From IMG/VR virus record IMGVR_UViG_3300042477_000769: a DNA stretch of 64,000 nt, one strand, 5' to 3'. Shown piece by piece: positions 13,328 through 58,601 of this stretch (positions are counted from its first letter, which is position 1; every line of letters begins with the position of its first letter). The position numbers were made by a program, and so were the translations under genes. The notes beneath the pieces are model-generated. The model saw only the letters and a list, made by a program, of their open reading frames with translations, was not told where the DNA came from and searched no databases. This DNA is from a virus (lineage: Duplodnaviria; Caudoviricetes).

Positions 13328-14306
13328 CATTACTCTCGAAGAATCAGTTGAGCAAATAGTTTCTGGAATTCCTAGAACTATTGCTATTACCACTAATATT
13401 GCTTCCTCCATTTTTTATACGTTAGATGGTAGTACTCCCAATTTATATTCTAATATTTATACTAGTCCAATTACTATGCCTACTAGTAACTTAACAGTTA
13501 CACTAAAAGTTTTAGCTACTAATGGCATAGATACTAGCTCTATTATTACTGAAACATATGTAACTAATTTAGTAGAGAATACTAATGCTAGATTGCCTCG
13601 TTCAGGAACTACGGCTAATGCTGGCGAGAATATTCCTAGTTTATATCCTTACGGGAATACCCCTATTCAGCCTAATGCTAATTTTGAAAATCCCGCAGAT
13701 GCCGGTATTACCGTCGATAATCCGGCCTTACCAGCTACTTCTACTGGATTTGATGGTGCTGGTAATCCTAATGCTTTTACTAATGAGCCTTTTAATACTA
13801 CTAATTATAGTATCAAGTATTCAACTACCGATTGGCAAAATAAACCCGGTTATGGCATTGGCACTTTGCCAGGACAAGTAACTATCGATATTAAGCCTCA
13901 ACCCCCAGAAACTACGAATCAAAATAGTAATACTTTTGATCCTAAAGCTTTCGTTGTCTTTCAAGATGCAGCAACTGAAGACCCTAATCTGCCGCCGTCT
14001 ATTAATAGAATGCATTTTTCATCTGAAGATTCTAATATCAATCGAGATGGAAATAATTTCTTTAATAGCGGATTAGATGCACCACCGACTAGTGGCACCT
14101 TTTTAAGGTCTCATTTTAATCCTAGAACTAATTCTATTACTTATTATTATTTAGATACGTGGAGTAATAAATGGATTATTTCCACGGCTCCGTTTAATCC
14201 AAATGGTGGATGGGATGGAAATATGGCCGGGATGGCGTTGTCGAGGCAGAGTGGGGCGGGGTTTGTATTTGAATGGCTCCCCTTCACTCGTCGAGTACTA
14301 TTCTAA
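13308..14306 (+). CDS. Fn3-associated/CHB_HEX_C-like domain protein, probably virion-associated
   Basis: IFYTLDGSTPN...Y..PI motif; Thr/Asn/Pro-rich remainder. Confidence 0.7.
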   Translation: MNMAVISITLEESVEQIVSGIPRTIAITTNIASSIFYTLDGSTPNLYSNIYTSPITMPTSNLTVTLKVLATNGIDTSSIITETYVTNLVENTNARLPRSGTTANAGENIPSLYPYGNTPIQPNANFENPADAGITVDNPALPATSTGFDGAGNPNAFTNEPFNTTNYSIKYSTTDWQNKPGYGIGTLPGQVTIDIKPQPPETTNQNSNTFDPKAFVVFQDAATEDPNLPPSINRMHFSSEDSNINRDGNNFFNSGLDAPPTSGTFLRSHFNPRTNSITYYYLDTWSNKWIISTAPFNPNGGWDGNMAGMALSRQSGAGFVFEWLPFTRRVLF

Positions 14307-14311
14307 ACCTT

Positions 14312-14974
14312 ATGCTGTGCAAACTCTGTGGACTAGACAAAGAACTAAATTCTAGCAATTTTCAACAGGGCACCAATAAAAGAAATGGCATTAACCATCA
14401 TTATTGGTATCGAACTTGTCGAGCGTGTAATCGAGATAAAATTCGAGATAAAAATAAAAGATTTAAAGAGAAAAATAGAAAAAAATTAGCAGATAAACAA
14501 AAATTATATCGTGCTTCTCGACAAGAACATTATTCTCAAATAGCCAAAATTTGGTATCAAAAAAACAAAGAAGACGTTAAAATCCGCATCAAAAATAATT
14601 TGAAATTAAGACGACAAACAGATCCTCTATTTCGTTTAAAATTTAACATCTCCGCCAATATTCGTGCCTGTATTAAAAAAAATTATCAACCGGTAAAGAA
14701 TTTTCTTCCATATTCTATTGCGGAACTGAAAAAACATTTAGAACAACAATTTGAACCCTGGATGAATTGGAATAATTATGGTACCTATTCTACTTCCTGG
14801 AATGATCAGGATCCCCAAACTTGGACTTGGCAAATAGATCATATTATTCCTCATAGCACATTTAATTACACTTCACTACAAGACCCTCTCTTTCAAGATT
14901 GTTGGGCTTTAAGTAATTTACGGCCATTAAGCTCTAAAGCCAATTTATATAAAAGCAATAAAATTATTAAATAA
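14312..14974 (+). CDS. HNH-type homing endonuclease (paralog 1)
   Basis: N-terminal CKLC/CRAC, basic helix, WQIDHIIP...CWALSNLRPL...N..KSN. Confidence 0.8.
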   Translation: MLCKLCGLDKELNSSNFQQGTNKRNGINHHYWYRTCRACNRDKIRDKNKRFKEKNRKKLADKQKLYRASRQEHYSQIAKIWYQKNKEDVKIRIKNNLKLRRQTDPLFRLKFNISANIRACIKKNYQPVKNFLPYSIAELKKHLEQQFEPWMNWNNYGTYSTSWNDQDPQTWTWQIDHIIPHSTFNYTSLQDPLFQDCWALSNLRPLSSKANLYKSNKIIK

Positions 14975-15059: not shown

Positions 15060-15845
15060 ATGACTGATAATTTCAGAGTTTCCGTATCTAAAACGAAAAC
15101 TTTTTTAGATTGTAAGGCTAAGTTTAAATTCTCTTATGTTGAGAAGCTGCCGAAAAAAGATTGGGATTTCCATATTTTTGGTAAATTCTGTCACATGGTA
15201 CTTGAAGAGTTTCATAAGGTTTATATTGAAGGTTCTGACGCTCCTTATCATGTAACCATGGGGCAATCATATAAGTTAGCCTTGAAAGAATTTCAGGAGA
15301 AAATGACACCTGAAATGAAAAAAGAATGTTGGGCCATTATTGATCAATATTTAAGAAAGATTTCGGCCGAAAAAAATAATGGACATCCCGCGAATGTCAT
15401 TGCGGTAGAAAAAAGATTTGAACTCCAAGTAGGAGAGACCATAGTTCTCAATGGTGCCATTGACAGAATCCAATTGGATAGTGATGGAATTATTCATGTG
15501 GCAGACTATAAAACCAGTAAAAGTACCAAATATTTGAAAGATGATTTCTTTCAATTAATGACTTATGCGTATGTCATCATGTCCGATGACCCAACTATAG
15601 AAAAAGTTAGAGCGTCTTATGTCATGTTGCGTCATGATTTTGAGTATATTACAACTGAATTCCATAAACCAGAAGTCATGGAAGTAGAAAAAAAGTATAT
15701 TGATTATGTCAATCAAATGATGACAGAGAAGGAATTTAAGGCGAATCCGAGTGCATTGTGCAGATTCTGCGATTACGCCTCCTTGTGCCCGGAAGGAAAA
15801 AAAATGCTCGAACCCTCCCTTCGGTATGGCGAAGTGGCATGGTAA
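15060..15845 (+). CDS. PD-(D/E)XK exonuclease, RecB/AddB/Cas4-like, probable Fe-S staple
   Basis: FGKFCH, GAIDRI, VADYKTS, FQLMTY; N-terminal Cys plus C-terminal CRFCDYASLC. Confidence 0.85.
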   Translation: MTDNFRVSVSKTKTFLDCKAKFKFSYVEKLPKKDWDFHIFGKFCHMVLEEFHKVYIEGSDAPYHVTMGQSYKLALKEFQEKMTPEMKKECWAIIDQYLRKISAEKNNGHPANVIAVEKRFELQVGETIVLNGAIDRIQLDSDGIIHVADYKTSKSTKYLKDDFFQLMTYAYVIMSDDPTIEKVRASYVMLRHDFEYITTEFHKPEVMEVEKKYIDYVNQMMTEKEFKANPSALCRFCDYASLCPEGKKMLEPSLRYGEVAW

Positions 15846-16561
15846 CGGAATATAAAAACTGTACCAAATGTAATCTTCAAAAGATATTTCCCGATGATTT
15901 TGCTAGTGGTAAATCTTTCTGTAAACAATGTAGAAATCTTTACTTAAAAAGTAAAAGAACACCTAAATTAAAAAGCAAACAATCTTCAGCAGAAAGACTG
16001 TTAAAAATAAAAGAATGGCAACGCAATAATCCGACCAGAAGACAATTAGCGATCCAAAAATACCACGCTTCTCATCTTACAGAAGAAAAGCGTTATTATC
16101 AAGATAATAAACATAAAATCCTAACTAGGATTAAAAATTGGAAATCTTCTAACAAGGAACATACTAATGCGTGGACTAGACACTATCGTCAACAACCTAT
16201 CATTAAACTAAGACACACAGTTTCTGTGTTAATTAGATTTTACTTAAAAGGAATTAAGTCTGGCTCTGTTATTAATCATCTGCCCTATTCTATCGAAGAA
16301 TTAAAACTTCATTTAGAACAACAATTCGAACCCTGGATGTCGTGGTCCAATTGGGGCGTTTATTGTCCCGAAAAATGGAACGATGATGATCCCTCTACTT
16401 GGACTTGGCAGTTAGACCACATTATCCCACATAGTAGCTTTATGTATACTTCCATGGAAGATTCGGCTTTTCAAGAATGTTGGGCCTTAAGTAATTTAAG
16501 GCCATTATCTGCTAAAAAAAATATTATAGAAGGCGCTAGAAAAATAAGTGTTATAGAATAA
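15839..16561 (+). CDS. HNH-type homing endonuclease (paralog 2)
   Basis: Same architecture and shared DNA blocks with 14312-14974; WQLDHIIP...CWALSNLRPL. Confidence 0.8.
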   Translation: MVTEYKNCTKCNLQKIFPDDFASGKSFCKQCRNLYLKSKRTPKLKSKQSSAERLLKIKEWQRNNPTRRQLAIQKYHASHLTEEKRYYQDNKHKILTRIKNWKSSNKEHTNAWTRHYRQQPIIKLRHTVSVLIRFYLKGIKSGSVINHLPYSIEELKLHLEQQFEPWMSWSNWGVYCPEKWNDDDPSTWTWQLDHIIPHSSFMYTSMEDSAFQECWALSNLRPLSAKKNIIEGARKISVIE

Positions 16562-18174: not shown

Positions 18175-18175
18175 C

Positions 18176-19228: not shown

Positions 19229-22200
19229 ATGACTGACTTTGTCTCGTTACATAATCAGACGGATTTCTCTATTCTTGATTCTTTAATGTCCCCCAAAGCA
19301 CTCTTTAATCGAGCCAAAGAATTGGGCCAATCTGCAGTCGCAGTCACAGATCACGGCACACTAGCCGGAGCCTGGGATTCCTTAAAAGCTTCCCGAGAGA
19401 CTGGCGTTAAACTTATTATGGGCTGTGAAATCTACTTTGTAGAAGATGCCCAAAATATTACCGATAAATTTAGACATTTAACCCTGTTAGCTAAAAATGC
19501 TAATGGTTATAAGAACTTACTCACTCTCAATAAAAAGGGCTTTGATCAGGGCTCTTTTATTGGCAAGAGAGTATATCCTATTGTCGATTGGAAGTTGTTA
19601 GAACAATGTTATAACGGGCTAATTTGTCTCACTGGTTGTGGCAATGGAATCATTAGCCAATTATTAATGAATAAAAAGTTTGATGAAGTAGAAACTACTG
19701 TCCTGAAACTGAAACAGTTATTTGGAGATAATTTAGGCATTGAAATTCTTCCCAATAATATGAAGCGGGGCTCTAATATTTATAATGATGAAATTGATCA
19801 ACAATTTCTCAATATGAAGCTGATTAATTTGGGCAAAACACACAATATTAAAATTGTGCCCACCTGCAATGCTCATTATGTGAAGAAAGAAGATCATGAT
19901 ATTCATGATGTTTTTCTAGCTATTGGTTCTCATCAACCAAAATATTCTAATTTTAGAATTAAATATAATGTACCAGATTTTTATCTTAAATCTGCCGAAG
20001 AAGTTAAAAACTTCTTTGCTAGAAATCATGGCGAAGAATTAGCAGAAGAATGGTGTAATAATACGGTATATTTCGCCAATTTATGCGAAACTCCAGATTG
20101 GATTGACCCTAAATACTCTAATCCTTCTGGAAAAGAATTACCGATCTTCCCGGTCAAAGATGAGACAGATTATCCTGAATTTGTACACTGGCTGGAACTT
20201 CAACCGCCAGAAGTTAAATTATTAGATATTGATAAACAATATTTGAGATTTAAATGTCAAGCCGCTTTTTCCTCTCGTATTAAGGATTTATCTCCTGATA
20301 ATATGGAAAACTATCAACAGCGCTTGTTAGAAGAGCTAGATGTTATTGAATATCATGGCTTTTCTAGCTACATGTTAATTGTGGCAGATTATATTAATTG
20401 GGCTCGTCGTAATGAGATTGCCGTAGGAGAAGGTCGAGGCTGCCTCACGGGTGATACCCAAGTCTTAACTACTCAAGGATTTAAATTAATCAAAGACCTG
20501 TCTGTGACAGATACTGTGTTTAGTCATACTGGAAATATGAAAACTATTTCTAAATTATTTAAATTTGACGTATCCAATGAAAAATTATTAAAGTTTAAAA
20601 CACAGCAATCGTTTACGGACCTCACCATGACTTCGGATCATAAGGTGCTAATTGCTAAATCTCAAGATTTAGATAAATATTATTTTTACCCACCTAAAAA
20701 AGTTAAAGGTAAAATTAAAAGCTTTAATCCCCACTTGGAATGGGTGCCGGCTCACCAAATAAAAGTAGGAGATTATTTCTTTACTCCTAAATTAAATCGT
20801 TCCATTGACAACTTATCAGATATTGATCTTGCTCAATACAGCGACTCAATCATAGAAAATGATTTTATTGTCAGCAAAATTTACTTTACTAGCCCCCTCT
20901 CTTTACGCGCTTTACATAAAGTATCTCCAATCAGCTTTGAAAGTTTGAGAAAAATCAAAAATAACAAACCTATTGCTGATACACAAATTAATTTACTTCA
21001 ACAATACCTGTCTTCTACTGGGTCGTCTCTTCAAGATTTTGTCAATCATAAAAACTATAAATATAGCCGAATTCAAAGATTTATTAAAATTGATAATGAT
21101 TTCGCTTATTTATTAGGCCGATGGATCGGTGATGGATCCTTTCATGGAAATAAAGGGATTTCTATCTGTTTTAATAGTAAAGATATCGTAGGTCGAGAAA
21201 AAATAAAATCCTATCTCACTAAACTAGGATTTTATGTCTGCCAAGAAAATAGAAAAAATAATAATACCTTATTAACTGTTTCTAATAAGGCTATGTATTC
21301 TTTATTTAAAGAATTATTTCCGAATTATCATAGTTCTCAAACTAAACATATGCCAAATATTTTTCGTTTATTTTCTGATGAACTAATTCGTCATCTGTTA
21401 TTAGGATTATTAGAATCAGATGGTTGTGTTAATAATTATGAAAAAATAAAAACTACTAGCCAAACTTTAGCTCTGCAAGTAAAAGAAGCGTTAAATTATT
21501 TATCACTCCCCTCCTCTATTTATACAGAAGAAAACCCGAAAAGATATCAAGTAGCTACCTCTACTGCTTTTACCATTGCTTTTAATGGAATTAAAACTAA
21601 ACCTAATCCACATATCCACCGAACAAATCAAGGTTTTTATAGTAAAGTAGTTAGTATAGTGGAAACTACTGCTGATTTTGTCTATGATTTTACTGTTCCA
21701 GATGATCATAGCTATCTTACTACCAGTGGAATAGTTCATAATAGTGTAGGAGGCTCTTTAATTGCTTTCTTACTAGGAATTCATCAAGCAGACCCGATTA
21801 AGTATGATCTGATTTTTGCTCGATTTCATAATAAGGAGAAGAGCAGCTTTCCGGATATAGACACCGACTTCGCCCCCTCAGGTCGCGAAAAAGTCCAAGC
21901 CTATGTTCGCCAAAAATATGGAGAGGAACACGTAGCCCACGTCTCTAACGTTAATACTATTACCCCCAAGGTGTATGTTCGCGATATTGCGAGAGCCTGC
22001 GAATTAGGCGGCTCCAGAGAAGAAGCCGTTCGGATTGGTAATGATGTTGCCGATTGCATTCCATCAGATATTCATTCCATTGATGATGCGTTAGCTAAAG
22101 TTCCATTATTTGCTGAATATTGTAAAAAATATCCAGAATTAGAAAAGTATAAAAGCATTTGCGGAAAATATCGAGCTTGGTCTACTCATGCCGGAGGAAT

Positions 22201-23215
22201 TATTATTTCTGCCCGACCACTAACCGGATTAATTCCCCTGAGACGAGATAAAGATGGTGCCCTAGCTATTGAATATGATAAAGATAAAGCAGAAGAAAAC
22301 GGTCTAGTTAAAATGGATACTTTAGGTCTCTCCACTTTAGATATTATTGGAGAAACTTATCGTATTATTAAAGAACGCGGCAAAGAAGTGCCTCCCGATC
22401 AATTAGATTATGATGTTCATGATGCTCCTTCTTATGATTTGATTGCTAATGGCGATACCTTTTGCGTCTTTCAATTAGGGACTAGTGCTGGTACCGTAGA
22501 CTTATGCCGTCGAATTAAACCAGATAGTATCAATGATTTAGCCAATATTAATGCCTTGGCCCGACCCTCCGCTCGTGAGATGAGAAATGATTTCATTAAA
22601 ACTAAAAATGGAGGTAAGCCGGTTGCTTTATTGCATTCTAAATTAGCTCGAGCTTTTAATAGTACTTATGGCTTCGGATTATATGAAGAATGTTTAATGT
22701 ATCTGGCTCAAGATATTGCTGGTTGGAGCTTGCACTCAGCTGATAGATTAAGAAAATTAACTAAAGAAAAAGGTAAGAATCCTAAAAAGGTCCAACAATG
22801 GAAAGCAGAATTTATTGCTGATTCTGTTAAAATGGGCGTTCAAGAATTAATTGCTCAACGTATATGGAGTGAGGTAATTGAGCCTTTCCAGGGATATGGG
22901 TTCAACCGTTCCTTGTCCCTTTTTGAAATGATTGATATATATTCTAATGATGGTAGATTTATAAAGTCTAAACCTATAGGAGAAGTAAAACCAGGAGAAT
23001 ATGTGCGTTCACGAGATGAAGCTACTCAAAAAGAGATTTTTGTCGAAGTAAAGGCGAATCATGATCATGGTATTTTACCTTTAGTAGAGGTAGAATTAGA
23101 AACCGGCGAAACAGTCAAATGTACTATGGATCATAAGTTTAGAATTCAAGAAAATAAAGAGATGGTGCCATTATGGCAAATCTTAAGAGACAATTTATCA
23201 ATAGTGTTAGGTTAA
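19229..23215 (+). CDS. dnaE: DNA polymerase III alpha (DnaE) N-terminal part, with one cis intein and a C-terminal split-intein N-half
   Basis: PHP (LHNQT, TDHG), GRG|SVGGSL, FPDIDTDF, KMDTLGL, LYEE, FQGYGFNR. Confidence 0.95.
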   Translation: MTDFVSLHNQTDFSILDSLMSPKALFNRAKELGQSAVAVTDHGTLAGAWDSLKASRETGVKLIMGCEIYFVEDAQNITDKFRHLTLLAKNANGYKNLLTLNKKGFDQGSFIGKRVYPIVDWKLLEQCYNGLICLTGCGNGIISQLLMNKKFDEVETTVLKLKQLFGDNLGIEILPNNMKRGSNIYNDEIDQQFLNMKLINLGKTHNIKIVPTCNAHYVKKEDHDIHDVFLAIGSHQPKYSNFRIKYNVPDFYLKSAEEVKNFFARNHGEELAEEWCNNTVYFANLCETPDWIDPKYSNPSGKELPIFPVKDETDYPEFVHWLELQPPEVKLLDIDKQYLRFKCQAAFSSRIKDLSPDNMENYQQRLLEELDVIEYHGFSSYMLIVADYINWARRNEIAVGEGRGCLTGDTQVLTTQGFKLIKDLSVTDTVFSHTGNMKTISKLFKFDVSNEKLLKFKTQQSFTDLTMTSDHKVLIAKSQDLDKYYFYPPKKVKGKIKSFNPHLEWVPAHQIKVGDYFFTPKLNRSIDNLSDIDLAQYSDSIIENDFIVSKIYFTSPLSLRALHKVSPISFESLRKIKNNKPIADTQINLLQQYLSSTGSSLQDFVNHKNYKYSRIQRFIKIDNDFAYLLGRWIGDGSFHGNKGISICFNSKDIVGREKIKSYLTKLGFYVCQENRKNNNTLLTVSNKAMYSLFKELFPNYHSSQTKHMPNIFRLFSDELIRHLLLGLLESDGCVNNYEKIKTTSQTLALQVKEALNYLSLPSSIYTEENPKRYQVATSTAFTIAFNGIKTKPNPHIHRTNQGFYSKVVSIVETTADFVYDFTVPDDHSYLTTSGIVHNSVGGSLIAFLLGIHQADPIKYDLIFARFHNKEKSSFPDIDTDFAPSGREKVQAYVRQKYGEEHVAHVSNVNTITPKVYVRDIARACELGGSREEAVRIGNDVADCIPSDIHSIDDALAKVPLFAEYCKKYPELEKYKSICGKYRAWSTHAGGIIISARPLTGLIPLRRDKDGALAIEYDKDKAEENGLVKMDTLGLSTLDIIGETYRIIKERGKEVPPDQLDYDVHDAPSYDLIANGDTFCVFQLGTSAGTVDLCRRIKPDSINDLANINALARPSAREMRNDFIKTKNGGKPVALLHSKLARAFNSTYGFGLYEECLMYLAQDIAGWSLHSADRLRKLTKEKGKNPKKVQQWKAEFIADSVKMGVQELIAQRIWSEVIEPFQGYGFNRSLSLFEMIDIYSNDGRFIKSKPIGEVKPGEYVRSRDEATQKEIFVEVKANHDHGILPLVEVELETGETVKCTMDHKFRIQENKEMVPLWQILRDNLSIVLG
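20441..21742 (+). other. cis intein with LAGLIDADG endonuclease (434 aa) in dnaE at GRG|S
   Basis: C1 CLTGDTQV, block B MTSDH, LLGRWIGDG and LLGLLESDG, C-terminal VYDFTV...GIVHN then Ser+1. Confidence 0.93.
22910..23212 (+). other. split intein N-fragment (101 aa), Ser1
   Basis: SLSLFEMI block A, block B KCTMDHKF, ends at the stop codon. Confidence 0.85.
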
Positions 23216-23216
23216 A

Positions 23217-26932: not shown

Positions 26933-27436
26933 ATGAGCCATACAGTAAGACTTGGTGATTTTTTAGGGACAGAATTAGAAGAAGATTTTATTAATTTTGA
27001 TTTTACCGAAATACAGAAAGTATTAACACATTTACAAGAGACAGATGCTTTGGACTTAGTTCATGCCGAGTTTTTACAACAGCAAGCGTTGCGAGGAGCG
27101 GATATTGTTTCTGAATATCTCGGCAAGATTATTAAAACAGTTGGATATTTAGAGGCTAAAGTTAATAGAACTAAAAATAAAGTCTCTTTAGAATATAAAG
27201 CTCCGGATGGAGAGCGAACTACTTTAGACATGAAAAAATGGGCCGGAGAGTCTTCTCTAGAGGTAGAAGAGGTTCAGATTAAATTAGCCAAAGCTAAAGC
27301 TTCTAAAATTGTATTGGAAAAAAAATATGATATTCTGATTAGAAGTCATCATCACTATAAAGATATTGCTCAGGGATTAAGAAGAACTGTCTTAGGATAT
27401 AATTCTACTACTAAAATTCCCGAAGGATATGAGTAG
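26933..27436 (+). CDS. coiled-coil protein, possibly a UvsY-like recombination mediator
   Basis: Size, helical pattern and position directly before the RecA/UvsX gene; function is an inference. Confidence 0.45.
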   Translation: MSHTVRLGDFLGTELEEDFINFDFTEIQKVLTHLQETDALDLVHAEFLQQQALRGADIVSEYLGKIIKTVGYLEAKVNRTKNKVSLEYKAPDGERTTLDMKKWAGESSLEVEEVQIKLAKAKASKIVLEKKYDILIRSHHHYKDIAQGLRRTVLGYNSTTKIPEGYE

Positions 27437-49593: not shown

Positions 49594-50487
49594 ATGTTAA
49601 AATCTATCGCTCAAGAATTAGTAATTGTTGATCCTCCTTCGCAGGAACCGCCGTTAATGTTAGAAATGAGCGATTCCTCACCAGAAGATGGTCTGGATCC
49701 GGTAGAAGTATATGATAATTCTATAACTAATCTTCATATTGTCATGGAATTACCTGGAGCCCCACCTGGCACTCAAGACCCTGAACCAGTCTTAGAGGTC
49801 TCGGAAGAAGAACCAGAAGAAAAACTATCTGAGAAAGAATCAGATGAAAATGATGCTAAAGCAGCTAAAAATGAAAAATGGAACTGGGCTAAACATGGGC
49901 CTACGGGATTTATTGCTTGGGTCAAGGAGCGATGTGATGATGTGCCGAAACATTCGGGTTATGATTCGGCCGGTTTAGAGCGCGCTATTGCCTACCTAGA
50001 GCGGCTCGATAGCGAAGTCTCCAAAGCCATGCGCCTCGACATTGATGGAGAATTAGACGCCAATCAAGTAGAAAAAGTGAGAGCGGTCATTGATAACGGG
50101 ACAGAGCGCTTATTAGATCGTTTAGATAAAGTAAAAAAGAATAAGAAAAAGAGTCGTAAAAAGAAAGCCGATGTCACGGATAGTTTGGTGAAAGAGGCTC
50201 AAAAAATTACTGGAGTGCAAGGCGTATTTGTGACGGTACCCTTGCTAATTTCTAGAATAGCTAGAGTATGTATTAATGGTATGGTCTCTGGTGGCCATGA
50301 TATTGAAGATTTATATGAGCGACAAGTTAAGTTCTATAAATTAAATGATCGTGAACAAGCAGAAGTAATGCAACTATTATCTGATATGGGTTATGCTTTA
50401 AAGCAAGACCGTGGATTTATGCCAGAAGATGATTTACATATTGACGATAGTAGCAATATGGATTTTGCCGCTAACTATAAGGGTTAA
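49594..50487 (+). CDS. hypothetical acidic protein, putative head protein
   Basis: 297-aa ORF. Confidence 0.7.
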   Translation: MLKSIAQELVIVDPPSQEPPLMLEMSDSSPEDGLDPVEVYDNSITNLHIVMELPGAPPGTQDPEPVLEVSEEEPEEKLSEKESDENDAKAAKNEKWNWAKHGPTGFIAWVKERCDDVPKHSGYDSAGLERAIAYLERLDSEVSKAMRLDIDGELDANQVEKVRAVIDNGTERLLDRLDKVKKNKKKSRKKKADVTDSLVKEAQKITGVQGVFVTVPLLISRIARVCINGMVSGGHDIEDLYERQVKFYKLNDREQAEVMQLLSDMGYALKQDRGFMPEDDLHIDDSSNMDFAANYKG

Positions 50488-50489: not shown

Positions 50490-51437
50490 ATGCCTCGCTA
50501 TACTCGACACCAATCTATCATTTCCCGCCATTCGGATGAATCAATTTCAGATGAGATGTGGTTACATAAAGTAAAGAATAATTTACAAAAGGGAGCGGTA
50601 CAACCTCGAAGCCAAGATTCCCTATTTGATCAAATTAATTCTATTATGAATGGAAATGCTAAGTCAAAATATTCTTCAGTCGAAGCGGCAGTAGAAGATA
50701 TGAAGGCTCGAAGTGGATTAACTGAGTATTTAAAGAAATCTAGCGATCACAGCAAAATCAAACAAGCCTCGGCTGAAATGGACCAATTACATAGTCAGAT
50801 CAAATCAGCTGCTGCTTCGGAAGATTGGTATCAAGTTGGTTATTTAATGGGTAAATTAGATAGTCATCAAGGACAAGTATTAACGGCCGTTGAATCGTTA
50901 AAAAACATTAAAAAGTTTGAAGACCCAGAATTGAATAAGATTCAACCTCCGATGAATAAATGGTTAGCTTATACTATGGGATATAGTACGGGGACTAATA
51001 AAAACGAAGAAGAGTTTAAGACTGACATGAAGCATACCATGTCAGTTATTAACCGTATTAATTTAAAGAAAAAAGCTTTAGATAATAATGCGGTGATGGA
51101 TAAGAATACTGATGATACACCAATAGTAATTAAAAAGTATCCGACGATCATGAATACTATTCAAAATTATATTCGTGATACCAAGGGAAATTTACCTGTA
51201 CCGGCTATTTTAGATAAAATTAGATCTATTCATCAAGCTGATTGTTCCGATGGTGCCGATTGGGAAGATGAGAAATTAATTAGATTAGTGAGTCGTCTTA
51301 ATTTAGAAGCTAAGAAGAGTAATCCTGATAATTATATGAATTATACTAATTTGGGCTCTCATGATAATAGTTCTAATTCAGAGATTGATCCGGCTAATAC
51401 TGATGCATTTTTTGGATTAAATCCCGCCAAAATGTAA
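50490..51437 (+). CDS. hypothetical protein, putative head protein
   Basis: 315-aa ORF. Confidence 0.7.
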   Translation: MPRYTRHQSIISRHSDESISDEMWLHKVKNNLQKGAVQPRSQDSLFDQINSIMNGNAKSKYSSVEAAVEDMKARSGLTEYLKKSSDHSKIKQASAEMDQLHSQIKSAAASEDWYQVGYLMGKLDSHQGQVLTAVESLKNIKKFEDPELNKIQPPMNKWLAYTMGYSTGTNKNEEEFKTDMKHTMSVINRINLKKKALDNNAVMDKNTDDTPIVIKKYPTIMNTIQNYIRDTKGNLPVPAILDKIRSIHQADCSDGADWEDEKLIRLVSRLNLEAKKSNPDNYMNYTNLGSHDNSSNSEIDPANTDAFFGLNPAKM

Positions 51438-51438: not shown

Positions 51439-52152
51439 ATGGGCAAGCCAAAATCCAACACGGCAGAATTTATTGCTAAAAGCAATAAAAAACATCGTCA
51501 TTTTTATGATTATCAACAAGTGGATTATATTACTCAACATATTCCAGTCGTTATCAAGTGTCCTATTCACGGATTTTTTACTCAAAAACCAAAAGCACAT
51601 TTACGGTATGGATGTAATAAGTGTGCCCAAGAAGTAAGATTAAAATCAATTCGAAAAACTAGTGAAGAGATATTATCTCAGTGTTTCTTAGTGCATCAAG
51701 ATCGATATGATTATTCTAAGATGCAATTTCTTTCGACTCGCCAAAAAGTAGAAATAATTTGCAAAATCCATGGGCCGTTTTGGCAGACGATGCATGATCA
51801 TTTGGCCGGCAAAGGCTGTGCTAAATGCATTAATAAAGTATCCAAAAACGAAACTCGATGGTTAGATTTAATGAGCATCGACCCAAAATTTAGAAATTAT
51901 AAAATTAACTTAAGCAAGTCATATTATGTCGATGGATATGATCCAATGACTAAAACTATTTACGAGTTCAATGGTGATTATTGGCATGGTAATCCTAGTA
52001 AATTTTGTCCGGATAAAATTAATAATCATACTAAATGTAGTTTTGGTCAATTATATCAACAAACTTTAGCTAAAGAAGTAGAGTTTAAAAAACATGGCTA
52101 TAAAGTTATATCTATTTGGGAAGTTGATTTTGTGAATATTTATGGCCGATGA
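51439..52152 (+). CDS. homing-endonuclease-like protein, paralog of 48443-49552 (two zinc repeats)
   Basis: YVDGYDP...IYEFNGDYWHGNP. Confidence 0.8.
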   Translation: MGKPKSNTAEFIAKSNKKHRHFYDYQQVDYITQHIPVVIKCPIHGFFTQKPKAHLRYGCNKCAQEVRLKSIRKTSEEILSQCFLVHQDRYDYSKMQFLSTRQKVEIICKIHGPFWQTMHDHLAGKGCAKCINKVSKNETRWLDLMSIDPKFRNYKINLSKSYYVDGYDPMTKTIYEFNGDYWHGNPSKFCPDKINNHTKCSFGQLYQQTLAKEVEFKKHGYKVISIWEVDFVNIYGR

Positions 52153-54472
52153 TAGTTTATTTTTAAAATTAAAGAATCAATTGATGATGTTAGATCCGGT
52201 AGTCTTTGTGGAATCTAACCTGACATTAGATGGCAAGCCTTTTAGATTGCGAGGGAATGGATATCGACCCTTTGCGGAGATTTATCGGTATATTGGGATT
52301 AAGGCGTTGGAGCCAAATTCGAAGCCGATCATTATCGTGAAAGGTAGACAAGTGGGCGCCACCACCATGGCCTCCGCCCTAGAAATGTACTTCATGGGCT
52401 CCGGCATTTTTGGCACCGGCAGCAAGCCTCCGGTTCGAATTATTCATGCCTTTCCCCAATTAGAATTAGCGGCAGCCTACTCTAAAACCAAATTAAATCA
52501 AATTATTTCTTCTTCGGTCCCATTACCATCAGATCCCAATAATAAGTCATTAAAGCCCAAAGCTTATATGCAATCGTTATTGGATCAATCTACTTCCACT
52601 AATGATTCGTTACATTTTAAGCAATTTGTAGGTGGTAATCATTTATGGATTGAGTCTGTGGGTTTAGATGGTGATAGAGTAATGGGACGCAGTGCGGATA
52701 TTATCTTCTTTGATGAATGTTTTCCGTATAATCAAAAAATAGCAACTAATCAAGGTAAAAAATCTATTGGTCAATTATATGATTTATTTACCAATAATCA
52801 AAATGTTCCATTAGTTTTAACTTTTAATTTAGAAAATGAAAATTTTGAATACAAAAAAATTGTTAATGTCTTTAATCGTGGAGATAAAAAATTAGTTAAT
52901 ATTAAATTAAGTGGAAGAAAAATTTCATGTACTGATAATCATCGGTTTCTGACTGAATTTGGCTGGAAAGAAATAAAAGATATTCCTATTGGAACATTAA
53001 TTAAAAGCTACGATGATACTTATAAAAAAGTTAGTTGGTTAGTTTTAGATAGCATTGAATATTCGAATGAGACAAAAACAGTCTATGATATTGAAGTAGA
53101 AGATAATCATAATTTTATTTTGGCGCCAAATAAAAATGGAAAGCATCAAGGTGGTCCGATAGTTCATAATTGCCAGAAAACTACTAGTATTGCCATTGGA
53201 AATTCTCTTAAAACTTTAACAACAGCCAAATATGGTAAACCGTCTAAAGGAGTTCAAGTTTATTTTGGAACTCCTAGAAGAAAAGGCTCTGATTTCCATA
53301 AAATGTGGCAAACTTCTTCTCAACAATATTATTATTTAGGATGTGGAAAATGTAAAGAATATTTTCCTCTATATACTCCTGGATCAGATGATTGGAAGAA
53401 TATTTGGATTTATGGATTTATGGTTAAATGCCCACATTGTGGTCATGAGCAAAATAAATTAGAAGCGGCAGAAAGAGGTAAATGGACTGCCTTACGAGAC
53501 CCAGATGATCCGGATTGCAAAATGGTTGGGTTCCATATCAATCAATTATACATGCCTATGTTTAGTCGAGAAGATATGGATAATGAAATGCCGGGGAATC
53601 ATCCTATTAATACTGAACGTGTCTTCATGAACGAAGTTATGGGAGAATTCTTTCAAGGAGATTCTAGTCCCATTACTCCAGAAGAAATTAAAGAGAAATG
53701 TGGAGATGACCGTAAATTTAGTGCTCGTATTGCTCCTTCTCGAAATGGTACCGATCAACAAATCGTAGTCTTAGGTATCGATTATGGTGCTAGAGCAGAC
53801 GTAGAACAATTAGCCGATATTGAAAATTCTAAATCTAAAGGTCAATCCTATAGTACAGCAGTGGTGTTATCGGCTAAAGGCCCAGGATTATTACATATTG
53901 AATTTGCCACTAAATTTAAAAGAAACGATCCGGAAAGCAAAAAGGGTCTGATTGAACAAATTATTAGACAATATGGTGTGAATTTAGCGATTGGTGATAT
54001 TGGATATTCTAATGATTTTTCTCAAACGTTACATCAAATTTATGGGGACAAATATATTGTCTCTCGTGCTCATCCAAAAGTCAATAATCATATCAAATAT
54101 AGTATAGATGCTTTTCCCAAAGAATTAGTCTTTGAAAGAGATTATTATATTGGAGAATTATATGAACAATTAAAGAATGGGATGATTAAGTTTCCTTTTG
54201 GAGACTATGAAAAAATTGCTTGGTTAATTGATCATTGTTGTAGTATGGAAATTAAGCCCTCTATTTCTCGAATGGGGGCGGATCCTCAAATCCATTATGT
54301 CAAGGGCGGAACTCCCAATGACGGATTTATGGCCTTATTGAATGCCTATTTGGCATATAAATTTATCATTACTAAGGGATTTACTAATAATAATCCTATT
54401 TTGCAAAAATCTAATTTTTCTAATATGAATAAGCCATTAGTAACTGGTGGTTATATTTCTCGTAAATTCTGA
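52142..54472 (+). CDS. terL: terminase large subunit with a mini-intein
   Basis: Walker A KGRQVGATT, Walker B IFFDE|CQ, FGTP coupling motif, CGKC/CPHC insert, nuclease LGIDYG. Confidence 0.88.
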   Translation: MADDSLFLKLKNQLMMLDPVVFVESNLTLDGKPFRLRGNGYRPFAEIYRYIGIKALEPNSKPIIIVKGRQVGATTMASALEMYFMGSGIFGTGSKPPVRIIHAFPQLELAAAYSKTKLNQIISSSVPLPSDPNNKSLKPKAYMQSLLDQSTSTNDSLHFKQFVGGNHLWIESVGLDGDRVMGRSADIIFFDECFPYNQKIATNQGKKSIGQLYDLFTNNQNVPLVLTFNLENENFEYKKIVNVFNRGDKKLVNIKLSGRKISCTDNHRFLTEFGWKEIKDIPIGTLIKSYDDTYKKVSWLVLDSIEYSNETKTVYDIEVEDNHNFILAPNKNGKHQGGPIVHNCQKTTSIAIGNSLKTLTTAKYGKPSKGVQVYFGTPRRKGSDFHKMWQTSSQQYYYLGCGKCKEYFPLYTPGSDDWKNIWIYGFMVKCPHCGHEQNKLEAAERGKWTALRDPDDPDCKMVGFHINQLYMPMFSREDMDNEMPGNHPINTERVFMNEVMGEFFQGDSSPITPEEIKEKCGDDRKFSARIAPSRNGTDQQIVVLGIDYGARADVEQLADIENSKSKGQSYSTAVVLSAKGPGLLHIEFATKFKRNDPESKKGLIEQIIRQYGVNLAIGDIGYSNDFSQTLHQIYGDKYIVSRAHPKVNNHIKYSIDAFPKELVFERDYYIGELYEQLKNGMIKFPFGDYEKIAWLIDHCCSMEIKPSISRMGADPQIHYVKGGTPNDGFMALLNAYLAYKFIITKGFTNNNPILQKSNFSNMNKPLVTGGYISRKF
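52718..53170 (+). other. mini-intein (151 aa, no endonuclease) at Walker B DE|C
   Basis: CFPYNQKI, CTDNHRF, VYDIEVEDNHNF, IVHN then Cys+1. Confidence 0.93.
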
Positions 54473-54527: not shown

Positions 54528-57500
54528 ATGGCTAAAAATAAATTAACACGTTGGGATGGCCCTTCTAAATCGGAGCAATATTTAGCATCTCGATCTGATG
54601 TACCGCAAGTTAGCGCTTTGATGGCAAAATCAGTGTCACAGTTTAGACGAGATGGAATCTCAAATGAAGTCAATCAAGGATTTTTTCGTGATGGTTCGGG
54701 CCCGTCAGCCTCAGAAGATGGTAGTACGGTTAATGGAAGGGTAGTATCTTCAGTTGGTCAAAATAAATTTGCTCAAGTAGTTAGCTCTTCTGGAGGAAAC
54801 TATCGTGGTGGTAACGGAGATACTGTTAAACAATCTCCAGAAGTTTATTCTCCATTATGGTTGAATTCTAATTTAAACTTACCACGAGATAGAGCCACTA
54901 TTAATGCTTGGTGTCGCAGCTTTTATGCACTAAATCCCTTTGTCCATAATGCTATTAATTTGCATAGCACTTATCCTATTAGTAAATTAAATATTACTTG
55001 TCCCAATAAAGAAATTGAAAGATTCTTCAATGATATGATTGAAGAAATTGATTTAATGAATGTCTGCGTTCAAATTGCCCAAGAATATTGGTTATTGGGA
55101 GAGTCTTTCGTCTATTCAGAATTAGATGAAAGTCGTGGCAAATGGAGCCGGTTATTAATTCAAAATCCAGATTATATGATTGTCAAACGTACTGTAGTGG
55201 CGAATGAGCCCATCATTATGTTACGCCCGGATGAAAATTTAAAGAAAATTATCTTTTCTAATCGACCTACTGATATTGAGCAAAGAAAACAATTAAATAG
55301 TCACATTATTAATTCCGTTAAACGTGGCGAGAATATTCCTTTAGATAATTTTCATGTCTCTCATTTGGCGAGAAGAATTAGTCCGTATGAAATCCGAGGG
55401 ACGGGGTTGCCGGTGTGTATTTTCCGGCAGCTGATGTTGTTTGATAAGTTACGCGAGTGCTACTCCGCTGACACCGAAGTTCTCACCAATCAAGGTTTTA
55501 AAAAAATCACCGACCTTTTACAAGTCAATAATACAGTCAATCATAAACTAGCTCGTATTAAACTAGCCTTAGTAGATGATAATAACCAAGTTAATTATGA
55601 TTATCCTGAAAATTTATCTATTGAGCAATATTCTGGTCAAATATTTTCGGTGACTGGTAAAAAAGTAGATTTAGCAGTTTTACCAACTAGTTGGTTAGAT
55701 GTAGCTAAAACTGATAATAACTTTCAAAAGGTGATGGCCTCTTCTTTATTAGAAAAGAAATCCTATTATCAATTTAATTCTCAAGTCCAATTTAATAATA
55801 CTGACCATCCGGCCACCGTGGTAGTCAATGGCAAGCATATTCCAACCGAATTATACTTAAAAGTATTAGGCTATTTGGTCTCCGAAGGATGCATTTATGC
55901 TAATGATCAAAATAATAGACATGATGCGTCTATCTCGGTCAGTCAATTAACTTCTAGTGATTGTTATCAAGAGATGAGAGAGTCTTTTGATGTATTTGCC
56001 CAATTATTAAATAAAAAGGCTAATCATACTGTTAAAGTAATTGGTTCTGGATATTCTGCTCATACTCCCAAAGAAAAATGGCAAGTAGTGATTCATGGCA
56101 AAGATCTCGTTGACCATTTTAAAAAAGAAATTGGTACTAATCAAAATACCTTATCGGCTCATAAATGTTTGCCTCGATGGGTATTAAATTTAACTCCCGA
56201 ATTAATGAATACATTATTGCAGGCATTAGTTAAAGGAGATGGCTCAGAACGAGTAGCAAATAAGTCGACTAGTTTTAAATATTCTACCATTTCTAAGCAA
56301 TTAGCTGATGATGTATATGAATTAGTATTTAAATTAGGGTTTGCGCCGAATCTGTGTATTTCTACTGCGACTAAAACCAATAACAAATCAGTGACAGAAT
56401 ATATTGTCATGTGGTCGACTACTGAGTATGGCAATCATCCATATGTCTGTTCTTTTGATCACAAGAATAAATTTGGTGGTGCGACTATTGCTCTTAATGA
56501 GTATACTGGTAAATTATGGAATATTGCGACCAATAAAAAAGTTATTTCTAGAAGAAATGGTAAAATCACAGTCCAATATGCTAATTCTTATGATGAGCAC
56601 ACTGAAATTTTAACAGAAGAAGGCTTTAAATATTTACACCAATTAGAGAAAGATAATTACATTAATGGCATCATTGTCAATGAGGATCAATCATTATCGT
56701 TATTAACTTTGAAAGATGATATTAAAATTGCTTGTGTTAATCCTAAGACTCAAGCCATGGAATATCATACGCCTATTGAAATGCATATGTCTCACTATGA
56801 TGGAGATATGATTCATTTTCAAGGTAAAAAAGTAGATTGCTTAGTTACTCCCAATCACAAAATGTGGGTCAATCCAATTATTAACAATCAAGAAATGGGA
56901 TATGCTAAAATTCCAGCTCGAGAATTATCCGTTGGACATTCTTATAAATTTAATAATGTTATTGATTGGGCCGGTAATAATGTAGAGTCGGTAACAGTCA
57001 TTGATAAACAAGTTCCGATTGAGGTATATTTAAAATTTATTGGCAATGTGATTAGTGAGGGTTGTGTTGATAGTAGTTTGAATAAAAAAACCAATCAACA
57101 TAGAAATAGGGTGGTAGTTACTCAATTAACGCAATCTTTATATTATCGCAATATGAGAGAGAATATTGAAAATTTTGCTCAGATTTTCGATAAAAAAGTA
57201 TCTACCTCCATTAAAGTTAAAGGCGGAGGCTTCTCGGCTCATTGTCCCAAAGAACAATGGAGCGGAACTATTTATTATAATTTGCTCAATAAGTACTTAA
57301 TTGAGACTATTGGGATCGATGGTAAGTGTGATTCTAAAAACAAACGAATTCCTAGATTTGTTTTAGATTTATCTCCAGATAAATTGCAAATTATTTTAGA
57401 CGCTTTATTGGATGGTGATGGTTCTAGAAAGAAATTAAATAACTCGCAATCGTCTTATAAGTATTCTACTGCCTCTAAACAATTAGCAGATGATGTTTAT

Positions 57501-58601
57501 GAGTTAGTTTATAAATTAGGATATGTGCCTATTTTACAAGCTTTCAAGAGAAAGACTTGTACTGAATATGTAATTCGATGGTCTGATACTAATAAAGGGT
57601 TAACACCTAAAATTAATGGTAGCGGTAAAAATCAAAAAGGCGCTTCTTTTAACAAAGTAAATTATCATGGTTTGGTGTGGTGTTTTGAGGTACCGACGGG
57701 ATTGTTTGTGACGAGAAGAAATGGGAAGGTGACGGTGCAGGGGAATTCGAAGTACGCCCAGGCGGATAATATGGTAAACCCCCTCACCCTGGTCAAAATC
57801 GGCACCGACGCTGCCGACGGCCTTCACCCCACCTTTGCCGACCTAGAAGCCTGGCGCAATGTCTTTGAGCAAGCTCAATATGATAAGGATTTTAAGATTT
57901 TTACTCATTCTGGCGTAGCGGTAGAACGAGTGGGTTATGGTCAAGGCATTTATGACATTTCTGGAGATATTACCCAAATTATTAAAGAGATTTATGTTGG
58001 GTTACAAGTACCGCCGGTATTAATGGATGGTGGCGCGGATACCACTTATGCTAATGGTAGTGTGGCCTTGGATGTATTAAAGCAACGCTATATGCAATTC
58101 CGAAACATGCTATCTACTTGGTTAAAGAGAAAAATCTTCGCTCCTATTTCTAAGATCCAGGGATTTTATGATTATTCTCATGGAGAAAAGCAATTAATTG
58201 TGCCCGAAGTAGATTGGAATCATATGGCATTATTTGATGCTGGTGATTATATTAATACTTTGTTAACCTTAACGCAAGGCGAAGGAGACGCTAAACGTGC
58301 GTCATTGCATACGCTGTATCGTTCTTTGGGTCTAGAGTTTGAAGATGAAATTAGAAAGATGAGAAAAGAATCGATTCAAAGTGCGATCGCTGTAAAAGAG
58401 AAAGAGTCTTTAGCGGCTATGGATTTGAATGCCTTACGAGCCTTGGATGAAGAGGATGAAATTCCAGAAATAGAAAAAGATCCTAATGAGGCTGGTGGTA
58501 GTGAGGGAGCTTTACCAGGACAAGATGCTGGTGGAGGACTTCCTGGATTAGAGAAGGGTTCGGGAGAAGAACCTCCAGTCCCACCTCCACCTGGAGCGTA
58601 A
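54528..58601 (+). CDS. portal protein interrupted by two tandem inteins (mature about 594 aa)
   Basis: Directly after terL; F...NPFVHNAINL, IAQEYWLLGE, HLARRISPYEIRGT, IYVGLQVP, acidic Pro/Gly tail typical of myovirus portals. Confidence 0.8.
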   Translation: MAKNKLTRWDGPSKSEQYLASRSDVPQVSALMAKSVSQFRRDGISNEVNQGFFRDGSGPSASEDGSTVNGRVVSSVGQNKFAQVVSSSGGNYRGGNGDTVKQSPEVYSPLWLNSNLNLPRDRATINAWCRSFYALNPFVHNAINLHSTYPISKLNITCPNKEIERFFNDMIEEIDLMNVCVQIAQEYWLLGESFVYSELDESRGKWSRLLIQNPDYMIVKRTVVANEPIIMLRPDENLKKIIFSNRPTDIEQRKQLNSHIINSVKRGENIPLDNFHVSHLARRISPYEIRGTGLPVCIFRQLMLFDKLRECYSADTEVLTNQGFKKITDLLQVNNTVNHKLARIKLALVDDNNQVNYDYPENLSIEQYSGQIFSVTGKKVDLAVLPTSWLDVAKTDNNFQKVMASSLLEKKSYYQFNSQVQFNNTDHPATVVVNGKHIPTELYLKVLGYLVSEGCIYANDQNNRHDASISVSQLTSSDCYQEMRESFDVFAQLLNKKANHTVKVIGSGYSAHTPKEKWQVVIHGKDLVDHFKKEIGTNQNTLSAHKCLPRWVLNLTPELMNTLLQALVKGDGSERVANKSTSFKYSTISKQLADDVYELVFKLGFAPNLCISTATKTNNKSVTEYIVMWSTTEYGNHPYVCSFDHKNKFGGATIALNEYTGKLWNIATNKKVISRRNGKITVQYANSYDEHTEILTEEGFKYLHQLEKDNYINGIIVNEDQSLSLLTLKDDIKIACVNPKTQAMEYHTPIEMHMSHYDGDMIHFQGKKVDCLVTPNHKMWVNPIINNQEMGYAKIPARELSVGHSYKFNNVIDWAGNNVESVTVIDKQVPIEVYLKFIGNVISEGCVDSSLNKKTNQHRNRVVVTQLTQSLYYRNMRENIENFAQIFDKKVSTSIKVKGGGFSAHCPKEQWSGTIYYNLLNKYLIETIGIDGKCDSKNKRIPRFVLDLSPDKLQIILDALLDGDGSRKKLNNSQSSYKYSTASKQLADDVYELVYKLGYVPILQAFKRKTCTEYVIRWSDTNKGLTPKINGSGKNQKGASFNKVNYHGLVWCFEVPTGLFVTRRNGKVTVQGNSKYAQADNMVNPLTLVKIGTDAADGLHPTFADLEAWRNVFEQAQYDKDFKIFTHSGVAVERVGYGQGIYDISGDITQIIKEIYVGLQVPPVLMDGGADTTYANGSVALDVLKQRYMQFRNMLSTWLKRKIFAPISKIQGFYDYSHGEKQLIVPEVDWNHMALFDAGDYINTLLTLTQGEGDAKRASLHTLYRSLGLEFEDEIRKMRKESIQSAIAVKEKESLAAMDLNALRALDEEDEIPEIEKDPNEAGGSEGALPGQDAGGGLPGLEKGSGEEPPVPPPPGA
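55458..56585 (+). other. portal intein A (376 aa, LAGLIDADG), Cys1, degenerate block B
   Basis: CYSADTEVLT; VLGYLVSEG and LQALVKGDG; ends SRRNGKITVQYAN. Confidence 0.85.
56586..57746 (+). other. portal intein B (387 aa, LAGLIDADG), Ser1
   Basis: SYDEHTEILT; LVTPNHKMWV; FIGNVISEG and LDALLDGDG; VWCFEVPTGLFVTRRNGKVTVQGN then Ser+1. Confidence 0.9.

Follow-up and report, generated by a model that had tools for sequence, protein, structure and literature searches.

The 64,000-nucleotide stretch of viral DNA analyzed here (IMG/VR record IMGVR_UViG_3300042477_000769, Caudoviricetes; hereafter the window) is the region devoted to replication, recombination and packaging in an uncultured giant phage from lake water, and its sequence has been found in at least 24 lake-water metagenome runs dating from 2020 to 2025. 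The window has a guanine-plus-cytosine (GC) content of 34%, its plus strand carries nearly all of the genes, and it encodes an SbcCD-like nuclease, primase, deoxynucleoside monophosphate kinase, a PD-(D/E)XK/Cas4-like nuclease, DnaE, RecA, a sigma-r4/HTH protein, terminase and portal. Selfish nuclease elements are densely packed among these genes and comprise HNH, GIY-YIG and DUF723/HNH genes, a Vsr-fold domain and inteins (Pfam and PHROG assignments). At about ten sites in the conserved genes, approximately 30 G-ending codons are followed abruptly by approximately 30 C-ending codons, the whole spanning about 180 nt. These polar patches, and their relationship to the neighboring selfish elements, are the subject of this analysis.

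The pattern was scored at third codon positions only, as the excess of G over C (G3 minus C3) in the left 90 nt minus the same excess in the right 90 nt, a quantity termed S3. Baseline frequencies are 0.14 for G3 and 0.11 for C3, and the window-wide standard deviation of S3 is 4.35. The highest peaks occur at 57778 (S3 34), 28668 (29), 55454 (25), 52334 (23) and 37680 (21), followed by those at 49983, 21860, 37986 and 14319 (18 each) and at 41494 (16). At the strongest of them, 57778, the 30 codons on the left contain 18 G-ending and 2 C-ending codons, while the 30 on the right contain 2 and 20, respectively. Peaks of the reverse order (C then G) appear only as the outer flanks of positive peaks, so that the mirror symmetry claimed in the initial annotation of this DNA holds at every patch, always as G then C. 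The G and C counts made by hand in that annotation are also exact (57661–57750, G35/C8; 57781–57840, G12/C28; 28621–28680, G16/C7; 28681–28740, G11/C24), and nine of its eleven proposed centers are the nine strongest S3 peaks; the remaining two are a weak trend at 15770 (S3 12) and a site at 22905 that is indistinguishable from noise. The patches and related sites, in plus-strand order, are as follows.

14187–14330: polar patch, with a strong G-arm at about 14223–14275 in the 3' end of the open reading frame (ORF) 13308–14306 and a weak C-arm in the first codons of the HNH gene at 14273; S3 18–20, raw counts over 60 nt G29/C6 on the left and G11/C17 on the right.
15700–15845: weak G-then-C trend in the overlap of a PD-(D/E)XK nuclease gene (15060–15845) and a non-core ORF (15758–16561); S3 12, not significant alone.
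21791–21931: polar patch at the PDIDTDF motif of DnaE, with the switch near 21842–21860, about 100–118 nt inside the C-extein; S3 18, G-arm weak, C-arm clear.
28578–28757: polar patch at RecA Walker B (LIVLDS), with the G-arm at 28578–28667 and the C-arm at 28668–28757; S3 29.
37631–37767: polar patch at the start of the conserved sigma-r4/HTH gene, with a short G-arm and the C-arm at 37660–37767; S3 21.
37900–38040: polar patch at the 3' end of the sigma-r4/HTH gene, about 105 nt upstream of the HNH gene 38095–38934; S3 18.
41400–41590: weaker polar patch in the conserved gene 40306–41913, 415 nt upstream of the non-core ORF 41910–42686; S3 16.
49909–50094: polar patch in the conserved gene 49594–50487, about 430 nt downstream of the DUF723 gene 48443–49552; S3 18.
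52265–52444: polar patch at terminase Walker A (KGRQVGATT), with the G-arm at 52265–52354 and the C-arm at 52355–52444, about 190 nt downstream of the DUF723 gene 51439–52152; S3 23.
55368–55547: polar patch at the junction of the portal N-extein and intein 1 (55458), the interval being centered on the junction; S3 25 at 55454.
57672–57863: strongest polar patch, at the portal intein-2/C-extein boundary, with the G-arm at 57672–57773 and the C-arm at 57774–57863; S3 34.

Several controls bear on whether this pattern is real. Within-gene shuffling of synonymous codons (n = 200), which preserves the protein sequence and gene-wide codon usage, gave maximal S3 values of 12–21 and a mean of 0.45 peaks of at least 16 (at most 3), compared with an observed maximum of 34 and 10 such peaks. 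These shuffles, together with codon alignments at identical residues, rule out amino-acid composition as the cause, and the patches, as the initial annotation had stated, are mostly silent. Related sequences were drawn from IMG/VR and JGI metagenomes, including contigs of 430–470 kb, at 60–90% protein identity (individual loci are designated L001 and so on). Two sets of their DNA, each of 989 kb (about 140 loci), contained 28 and 25 positive peaks of at least 16 and 28 and 35 negative ones, none above 21, which is symmetric noise only. Independently assembled contigs from four other lake metagenome runs are identical to the window, letter for letter, across the patches and both portal intein junctions, and the patches are therefore not an assembly artifact. 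The polar pattern is thus confirmed as real and strong. A score based on raw G and C counts was also tried on the relatives and proved unspecific, in that proteins with a Gly-rich then Pro-rich tail also score, and the third-position score was used instead. The portal C-terminus at 58540–58600 (about 10800 in many portal loci) is such a case: its tail, GGSEG...PPVPPPPGA, which relatives share, produces a raw G-then-C switch that is an effect of protein composition and not a patch.

The anatomy of the patches is uniform. In a pooled profile aligned on the switch points, G3 leaves the baseline about 30 codons to the left, reaches 0.3–0.5 and falls to 0.1 within about one codon, where C3 jumps to about 0.5, holds for 20–30 codons and is back at baseline by codon +35. 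The arms are accordingly of similar length (about 30 codons) and the switch is abrupt. Some centers fall on catalytic motifs, namely RecA Walker B, terminase Walker A and the PDIDTDF motif of DnaE. A few A- or T-ending codons are retained at or beside the switch, including TCT ATT ATT in RecA, GAT AAT ATG GTA in portal and AAA GGT AGA CAA in terminase; the last of these stands just before the switch, inside the nominal G-arm, in a codon alignment with L001, L002, L004, L006, L010 and L022. The pooled profile, which comprises only about ten patches, contains no gap comparable to these unrecoded codons. A GC-rich stretch at 31.0–31.6 kb, which the initial annotation had raised as a possible counter-example lacking an adjacent endonuclease, does exist (GC content at third codon positions, GC3, of 0.37–0.47 versus 0.22–0.30 in relatives); being broad and not polar, it is a different or much weaker thing than the patches. 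The rise itself (31034–31600) lies at the 3' end of the conserved gene 30854–31429 and abuts an inserted DnaJ-type chaperone gene (31426–32370) that relatives lack.

Comparison with the relatives shows that the patches are derived and specific to this lineage. In codon alignments, relatives use A- or T-ending codons for the same residues, and the GC3 of the RecA patch is 0.53–0.63 in the window versus 0.25–0.32 in 48 relatives. Third-position identity to relatives averages 0.27–0.45 in the arms and about 0.41–0.50 in the flanks, and the best match of any relative to the arms is at most 0.63 (130 loci); since the arms resemble relatives less than the flanks do, they were not imported from any sampled donor. 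Searches for close relatives among deposited phage genomes by megablast and tblastn returned no match, and an exact 21-mer of the RecA patch has no occurrence in IMG/VR. With the best relatives only at 60–90% protein identity, recent substitutions could not be polarized. No nuclease-free or intein-free variants were seen in the contigs of the four lake runs, whose depth is low and in which absence proves nothing; a joint skipping 6349 nt in these contigs was not trusted, as its short side is only 24 nt.

The selfish nuclease elements against which the patch positions were compared are listed below.

5120–5632: HNH endonuclease gene (170 aa), beside a transposase gene.
14273–14974, plus strand: HNH/endonuclease VII-like free-standing endonuclease gene (phrog_1035, phrog_7091).
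20441–21742, plus strand: LAGLIDADG intein in DnaE, Cys405 to Asn838 (Pfam, coverage and translation versus relatives).
22916–24532, plus strand: split-intein cassette in dnaE (coverage drop in relatives; phrog_559).
27429–28150, plus strand: DUF4379 plus DUF559 (Vsr-fold) endonuclease domain, read as an in-frame N-terminal fusion to RecA (Pfam; absent in relatives by coverage).
36812–37636, plus strand: GIY-YIG free-standing endonuclease gene (PF01541).
38095–38934, plus strand: HNH free-standing endonuclease gene (phrog_2255, phrog_3106).
38900–39778, plus strand: GIY-YIG/NUMOD3 homing endonuclease gene (Pfam, PHROG).
48443–49552, plus strand: DUF723/HNH-type free-standing endonuclease gene (Pfam, phrog_559; matches in 6 of 80 loci).
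51439–52152, plus strand: DUF723/HNH-type free-standing endonuclease gene (Pfam, PHROG).
52718–53173, plus strand: terminase mini-intein at Walker B, lacking an endonuclease domain (relatives join aa 192 to aa 345; Pfam).
55458–56585 and 56586–57746, plus strand: two tandem LAGLIDADG inteins in portal (LAGLIDADG_3 matches).

The free-standing genes of homing families (HNH, GIY-YIG and DUF723 assignments) sit sporadically between conserved genes; the DUF723 genes at 48443 and 51439 are insertions, and most syntenic relatives have neither. The LAGLIDADG inteins of portal and DnaE are in frame, contain splicing blocks and an endonuclease domain, and occupy sites that are empty in most relatives; nearly all of these lack the DnaE intein at 20441–21742. 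When the boundaries of elements with family-level evidence for a homing nuclease or intein are counted, the ten strongest peaks lie at a median of 115 nt from the nearest boundary, compared with 1518 nt for random positions (P ~2e-5), and nine of the ten are within 550 nt. The link to mobile nucleases proposed in the initial annotation is thereby borne out. Distances are 0–30 nt for the portal inteins and 50–520 nt for the free-standing genes. It has been established that intron- and intein-encoded enzymes cut within about 25 bp of their insertion site, while free-standing ones cut hundreds of bp away (PMC2988022). The patch-to-element distances fit these known cut distances, as does the idea that the patch centers mark cut sites.

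The order of the arms is independent of the side on which the nuclease lies: the gene is on the left at RecA, 37686, 49980 and 52340 and on the right at 14272, 37990 and 41495, always with G before C, which argues for a process that is symmetric about the center and not directed from the gene. Furthermore, the same pattern occurs beside HNH, GIY-YIG, DUF723, Vsr-fold and LAGLIDADG enzymes, which suggests that a common downstream step of repair is responsible and not a particular enzyme. Two junctions act as negative controls. The terminase mini-intein, in which the endonuclease domain is missing, has no patch at either junction, and neither does the internal junction between the two portal inteins. 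For the non-core ORF 41910–42686, beside the patch at 41400–41590, no nuclease family match was found in Pfam or PHROG.

The portal gene provides the most detailed case. In most of the 80 relatives of the first set, the two exteins follow directly on one another, which fixes the insertion site. The two inteins are paralogous (376 and 387 aa) and stand back to back with zero extein residues between them, the Ser after the terminal Asn of intein 1 being residue 1 of intein 2. Two inteins occupy this site in L001 and one in 7 of the 80 relatives, and most have none. Each outer junction forms a complete patch with one arm inside an intein. At the downstream junction, the G-arm consists of the end of intein 2 and the first 27 nt of the C-extein, and the switch lies about 28 nt inside the C-extein. 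Third-position counts for the four arms are as follows (30 codons each).

N-extein end: G3 15, C3 3 (binomial P 2.7e-6).
Intein-1 start: G3 0, C3 12 (binomial P 4e-5).
Intein-2 end: G3 16, C3 0 (binomial P 4e-7).
C-extein start: G3 6, C3 17 (binomial P 1.5e-9).

In a recipient that lacks the intein and has been cut, the resected tails consist of extein DNA, and changes in them could color only the extein halves; damage to recipient tails therefore does not explain the arms inside the inteins. These arms match instead the C-rich new strands that would be primed at the 3' ends of the junctions, with the plus strand synthesized rightward into the start of intein 1 and the minus strand leftward into the end of intein 2. 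Synthesis that begins from breaks at each junction or close to it would give the observed sequence of four arms (G, C, G, C), and every other patch also follows from the rule that C is gained by the strand synthesized away from the break.

The composition of the arms was determined at fourfold-degenerate sites, with the consensus of the relatives as a proxy for the earlier state.

Left arms: A 21%, T 19%, G 54%, C 6%.
Right arms: A 13%, T 14%, G 5.5%, C 68%.
Background: A 26%, T 41%, G 15%, C 18%.

Left-arm sites are G in 49% of cases where the consensus has T, in 58% where it has A and in 4 of 4 where it has C; right-arm sites are C in 76% of cases where the consensus has A and in 63% where it has T. 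Within the left arms, A is the least depleted base (26 to 21%), while T and C are depleted two- to threefold. The shift to G on the left or to C on the right is thus independent of the source base. A similar bias extends to first and second codon positions, as expected from a directional pressure acting on all positions: changes lead towards G on the left or C on the right, and those towards A or T account for only 1 of 13 in the left arms and 5 of 28 in the right arms (a count that includes about 8 misaligned intein-start positions at 55459–55486), compared with 46% in the background.

The explanation favored here, although tentatively and at slightly under even chances, is that each patch is the footprint of breaks or nicks that homing endonucleases introduce again and again, with a repair synthesis biased towards C. 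Homing endonucleases would repeatedly break or nick the DNA in a conserved motif of the neighboring gene or at an intein-extein junction, the switch point being the break. Over about 90 nt on both sides, the strand running 5' to 3' away from the break would gain C and its partner, ending 3' at the break, would gain G. Such a geometry corresponds to synthesis primed at the break or filling in from it, which may take the form of D-loop extension during homing, of fill-in of a short resected 5' strand, or of nick translation, in the last case with the genome's own sites or half-sites being cut repeatedly and repaired from sister copies. This synthesis, or a mismatch correction following it, would in this lineage be biased to C in the new strand whatever the template base; purifying selection would leave only silent and conservative changes, and many cycles of cutting and repair or homing would bring silent sites near saturation. 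The observed polarity, in which the strand ending 3' at the center is G-rich and C-poor, is, as the initial annotation had anticipated, that expected for 5'-to-3' resection on both sides of a break. In addition, the window itself encodes machinery for break processing (SbcCD-like and PD-(D/E)XK/Cas4-like nucleases, RecA and DnaE), and it may be speculated that the arm length of about 90 nt lies in the range of short-range end processing by a phage SbcCD-type complex. What has been demonstrated is the pattern, its derived and lineage-specific state, its polarity, its independence of the source base and its association with nuclease genes; the identification of the centers with cut sites, a mutational or drive-like cause as opposed to selection, and the polymerase or repair step involved are inferences. 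A more specific version holds that a phage or host polymerase step follows a "C rule", inserting deoxycytidine monophosphate opposite any base or lesion, as Rev1 does, within the first 90 nt or so at a break, and so leaves a polar footprint at every homing cut site and at both intein junctions; this version is considered rather doubtful.

A number of observations weigh against this explanation. Third-position tracks reveal no patch at either DnaE intein junction, no significant patch was found at the split-intein/HNH cassette (22916–24532), and the HNH gene at 5120 has none nearby, the maximal S3 over 1–13.5 kb being 10. The GIY-YIG/NUMOD3 gene 38900–39778 is associated with a G-arm only, formed by its last 45 or so codons (about 39650–39765), and no C-arm lies downstream. 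Polar patches are missing from relatives in which LAGLIDADG inteins occupy the same portal site or nuclease genes are close by, which requires an extra lineage-specific factor to be assumed. Unpolarized elevations of GC3 do occur at the same sites in some of them, namely at terminase Walker A in L001, just after Walker B of RecA in L106 and at the portal junctions in L045, L144 and L151; elevated GC3 at nuclease targets may thus be a feature of the whole clade, whereas the sharp polarity is confined to this genome. Samples from 2020 to 2024 contain a monomorphic population, in which no ongoing process is visible. Moreover, background fourfold sites are saturated relative to the relatives, so that the equilibrium composition can be read but mutation or transition/transversion rates cannot, and a mutation or conversion bias is consequently not separable from selection for composition. 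The arms are also imperfect mirrors, since the left arms keep A whereas the right arms do not keep its counterpart T, and their near-plateau shape with sharp outer edges is unusual for resection-linked mutagenesis. To our knowledge, no bacterial or phage polymerase has a Rev1-like insertion of C opposite any base. Finally, the patch centers as cut sites are a prediction from sequence.

The near-plateau and sharp edges would suit a functional footprint, and with it the strongest of the alternatives, in which the recoding is selected on the nuclease-linked haplotype or phage. Three advantages may be envisaged: immunity of the target to the phage's own or rival endonucleases; a mismatch "homology barrier", in which dense mismatches force long co-conversion and keep a resistant site together with its nuclease gene; and G-rich 3'-ended strands that aid end protection or recombinase loading, comparable to Chi on the 3'-ended strand. 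Free-standing endonucleases do need a resistant resident target (PMC2988022), the changes are nearly all silent, the population is monomorphic with patches stable over four years, and the G-rich strand is the one that an enzyme of the RecBCD/AddAB type entering at the center would read. Words of the GGTG type are mildly enriched (21 versus 14 expected), yet no shared k-mer or Chi-like word in the patches survives correction for multiple testing against mononucleotide or synonymous shuffles. Against this alternative, 180 nt far exceeds any recognition site, A-to-T swaps would be equally immunizing and are unused, and several codons at or next to the switch are left unrecoded, the opposite of what immunity predicts. 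An intein-bearing allele needs no immunity, and yet the portal patches are the strongest and have arms inside the inteins too. Relatives under the same nuclease pressure lack the polarity, and weak per-site selection would be needed at about 60 sites in each of at least 10 patches in a single lineage. Selected recoding is accordingly judged unlikely, although it is a possibility to be taken seriously.

An improbable alternative is that the arms are imported co-conversion tracts, that is, pieces of the genes of a GC-richer relative copied in together with the nuclease genes as these homed. Homing as a rule co-converts the flanks (PMC2988022), the clade includes relatives with 40–45% GC, and at the end of the portal N-extein some G-ending codons are common to the window, L068 and L001. 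The low third-position match of the arms to all sampled loci, lower than that of the flanks, speaks against such an origin, as do the mixture of G3 and C3 without segregation in GC-rich relatives and the AT-rich composition of the nuclease genes themselves; a donor would also need the same unexplained G-then-C structure.

Also very improbable is the mechanism originally proposed in the initial annotation, namely A>G and C>T changes (taken here as deamination) on resected 3' single-stranded tails at repeated double-strand breaks. It has the polarity and the association with nucleases right, and its geometry is that of the single-switch clusters of yeast (PMC6786661). The chemistry, however, is contradicted by fourfold composition: under it, A should be lost, T gained and GC lowered, whereas A is the base least lost on the left, GC rises and the source base is irrelevant. 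The arms inside the inteins, moreover, are in the wrong place for recipient tails.

A translational or RNA feature, in which a rare-codon cluster or a long mRNA hairpin of G-arm with C-arm pauses ribosomes at motifs or intein junctions, is hardly credible: G- and C-ending codons are indeed rare in the genome and the patch host genes all lie on the plus strand, so that the arms could pair in mRNA, but the folds of 57650–57860 and 28570–28770 are no better than those of dinucleotide shuffles (z +1.4 and -1.1), about 50–80 relatives have the same motifs without such codons, and rare codons explain neither the segregation of G and C nor the link to nucleases.

Several known systems resemble the patches in part. 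Intronless homing (T4 Seg and Mob) and the homing of inteins and introns (PMC2988022) likewise involve selfish nuclease genes between or within conserved genes, targets in conserved motifs and recombination repair that rewrites the flanks; the strand-polar G-then-C recoding, which here extends into the intein ends, sets the present case apart. The single-switch clusters of yeast, which arise by bidirectional 5'-to-3' resection and carry C>T/G>A changes made by a deaminase or an alkylating agent, have a mirror strand switch exactly at the break, with the 3'-ending strand losing C as it does here (PMC6786661). A single strand switch is thus shared with resection clusters, while a spectrum of lesions in single-stranded DNA, such as C>T, is not. 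The yeast clusters are kilobases long, are single events and lower GC (PMC6786661), whereas in the window G or C takes the place of any base for about 90 nt on each side, the changes have become fixed in the course of evolution, and GC goes up.

The source-independent silent shift from A or T to G or C around frequent break-induced recombination is reminiscent of GC-biased gene conversion, and the unpolarized GC3 islands of relatives at the same sites resemble it too. GC-biased gene conversion is established in eukaryotes and has been proposed for bacteria. Unlike the patches, with G54/C6 on the left and G5.5/C68 on the right, it has no strand polarity of G versus C, and its tracts are longer. 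Chi orientation and replication-linked GC skew also feature a G-rich strand that ends 3' at a break or is more often single-stranded, and the plus-strand switch from G to C resembles a miniature replication terminus; the patches differ in having no recurring motif, in extending over about 100 nt rather than hundreds of kb, and in being tied to nuclease genes. None of these systems unites a strict G/C strand switch with silent sites saturated for about 90 nt on either side and with a link to nucleases, and no account of a strand-polar, near-saturated synonymous G-then-C recoding around a target was found in literature searches. No polar patches were found near DUF723 nuclease homologs in other phages.

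Further features of the selfish elements and their surroundings were recorded. The transposase gene (phrog_506), the sole minus-strand gene, lies in 3854–5632 next to the HNH gene 5120–5632. The dnaE locus (19229–25666) is divided between two genes by the split intein, with an HNH/Ros-MucR zinc-finger endonuclease gene between the halves; the cassette comprises the IntN tail of ORF 19229–23215, the HNH gene 23217–24431 and the IntC head of ORF 24428–25666, and the split form is common to only about 6 of 36 relatives. The recA frame (27429–29324) is a single 631-aa ORF whose N-terminal part of about 240 aa, made up of a DUF4379 zinc finger and DUF559, is absent from relatives; this part is a homing nuclease fused in frame to recA or else a nuclease gene that continues into a true recA start near 28150–28200. 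Small paralogous ORFs stand in a row at 34784–36798, just upstream of the GIY-YIG gene 36812–37636, and are absent in relatives; three are exactly 128 aa long (35306, 35697 and 36088), with faint DUF6745-like matches. That GIY-YIG gene holds an internal C3-rich stretch near 36940 (S3 14 at 36936).

Near the DUF723 genes, the reading frame at 46076–48427 encodes a nucleotidyltransferase of the CCA-adding/poly(A) polymerase family with an insertion of about 330 aa (about aa 250–570) that contains a DnaJ-like J domain and that relatives lack, and the product of 50490–51437 has about 110 extra residues (aa 84–193). The terminase mini-intein, of about 151 aa, follows the "DE" of Walker B directly; the intein in this position is longer in L001 and L006, and the mini-intein looks like a degenerated copy. 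In L001, a 287-aa ORF (2817–3677, minus strand) occupies the slot upstream of terminase where the window has a DUF723 gene, and a GC3-rich island of mixed G and C (3850–3990) lies at terminase Walker A. The slot upstream of terminase and the Walker A target seem to have been used repeatedly.

The G-then-C polarity represents a natural, evolutionary-scale record of break-repair strand geometry in a virus, and behind it would stand an unknown biased repair activity or else selection of a new kind around nuclease targets. Provided that the switch points mark cut sites, sequence alone would allow the targets to be predicted for dozens of uncharacterized homing endonucleases in uncultured phages, which would help nuclease discovery as well as the understanding of how such elements shape genomes. 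Should the "C rule" be true, both the cut sites and the length of short-range end processing of the SbcCD/Mre11-Rad50 type would be readable from a genome sequence, and selfish nucleases would be drivers of local codon evolution in essential phage genes. The pattern further indicates that silent sites in even the most conserved motifs of essential phage genes, such as terminase Walker A, RecA Walker B, the catalytic motif of DnaE and portal, are open to local rewriting by genetic conflict.

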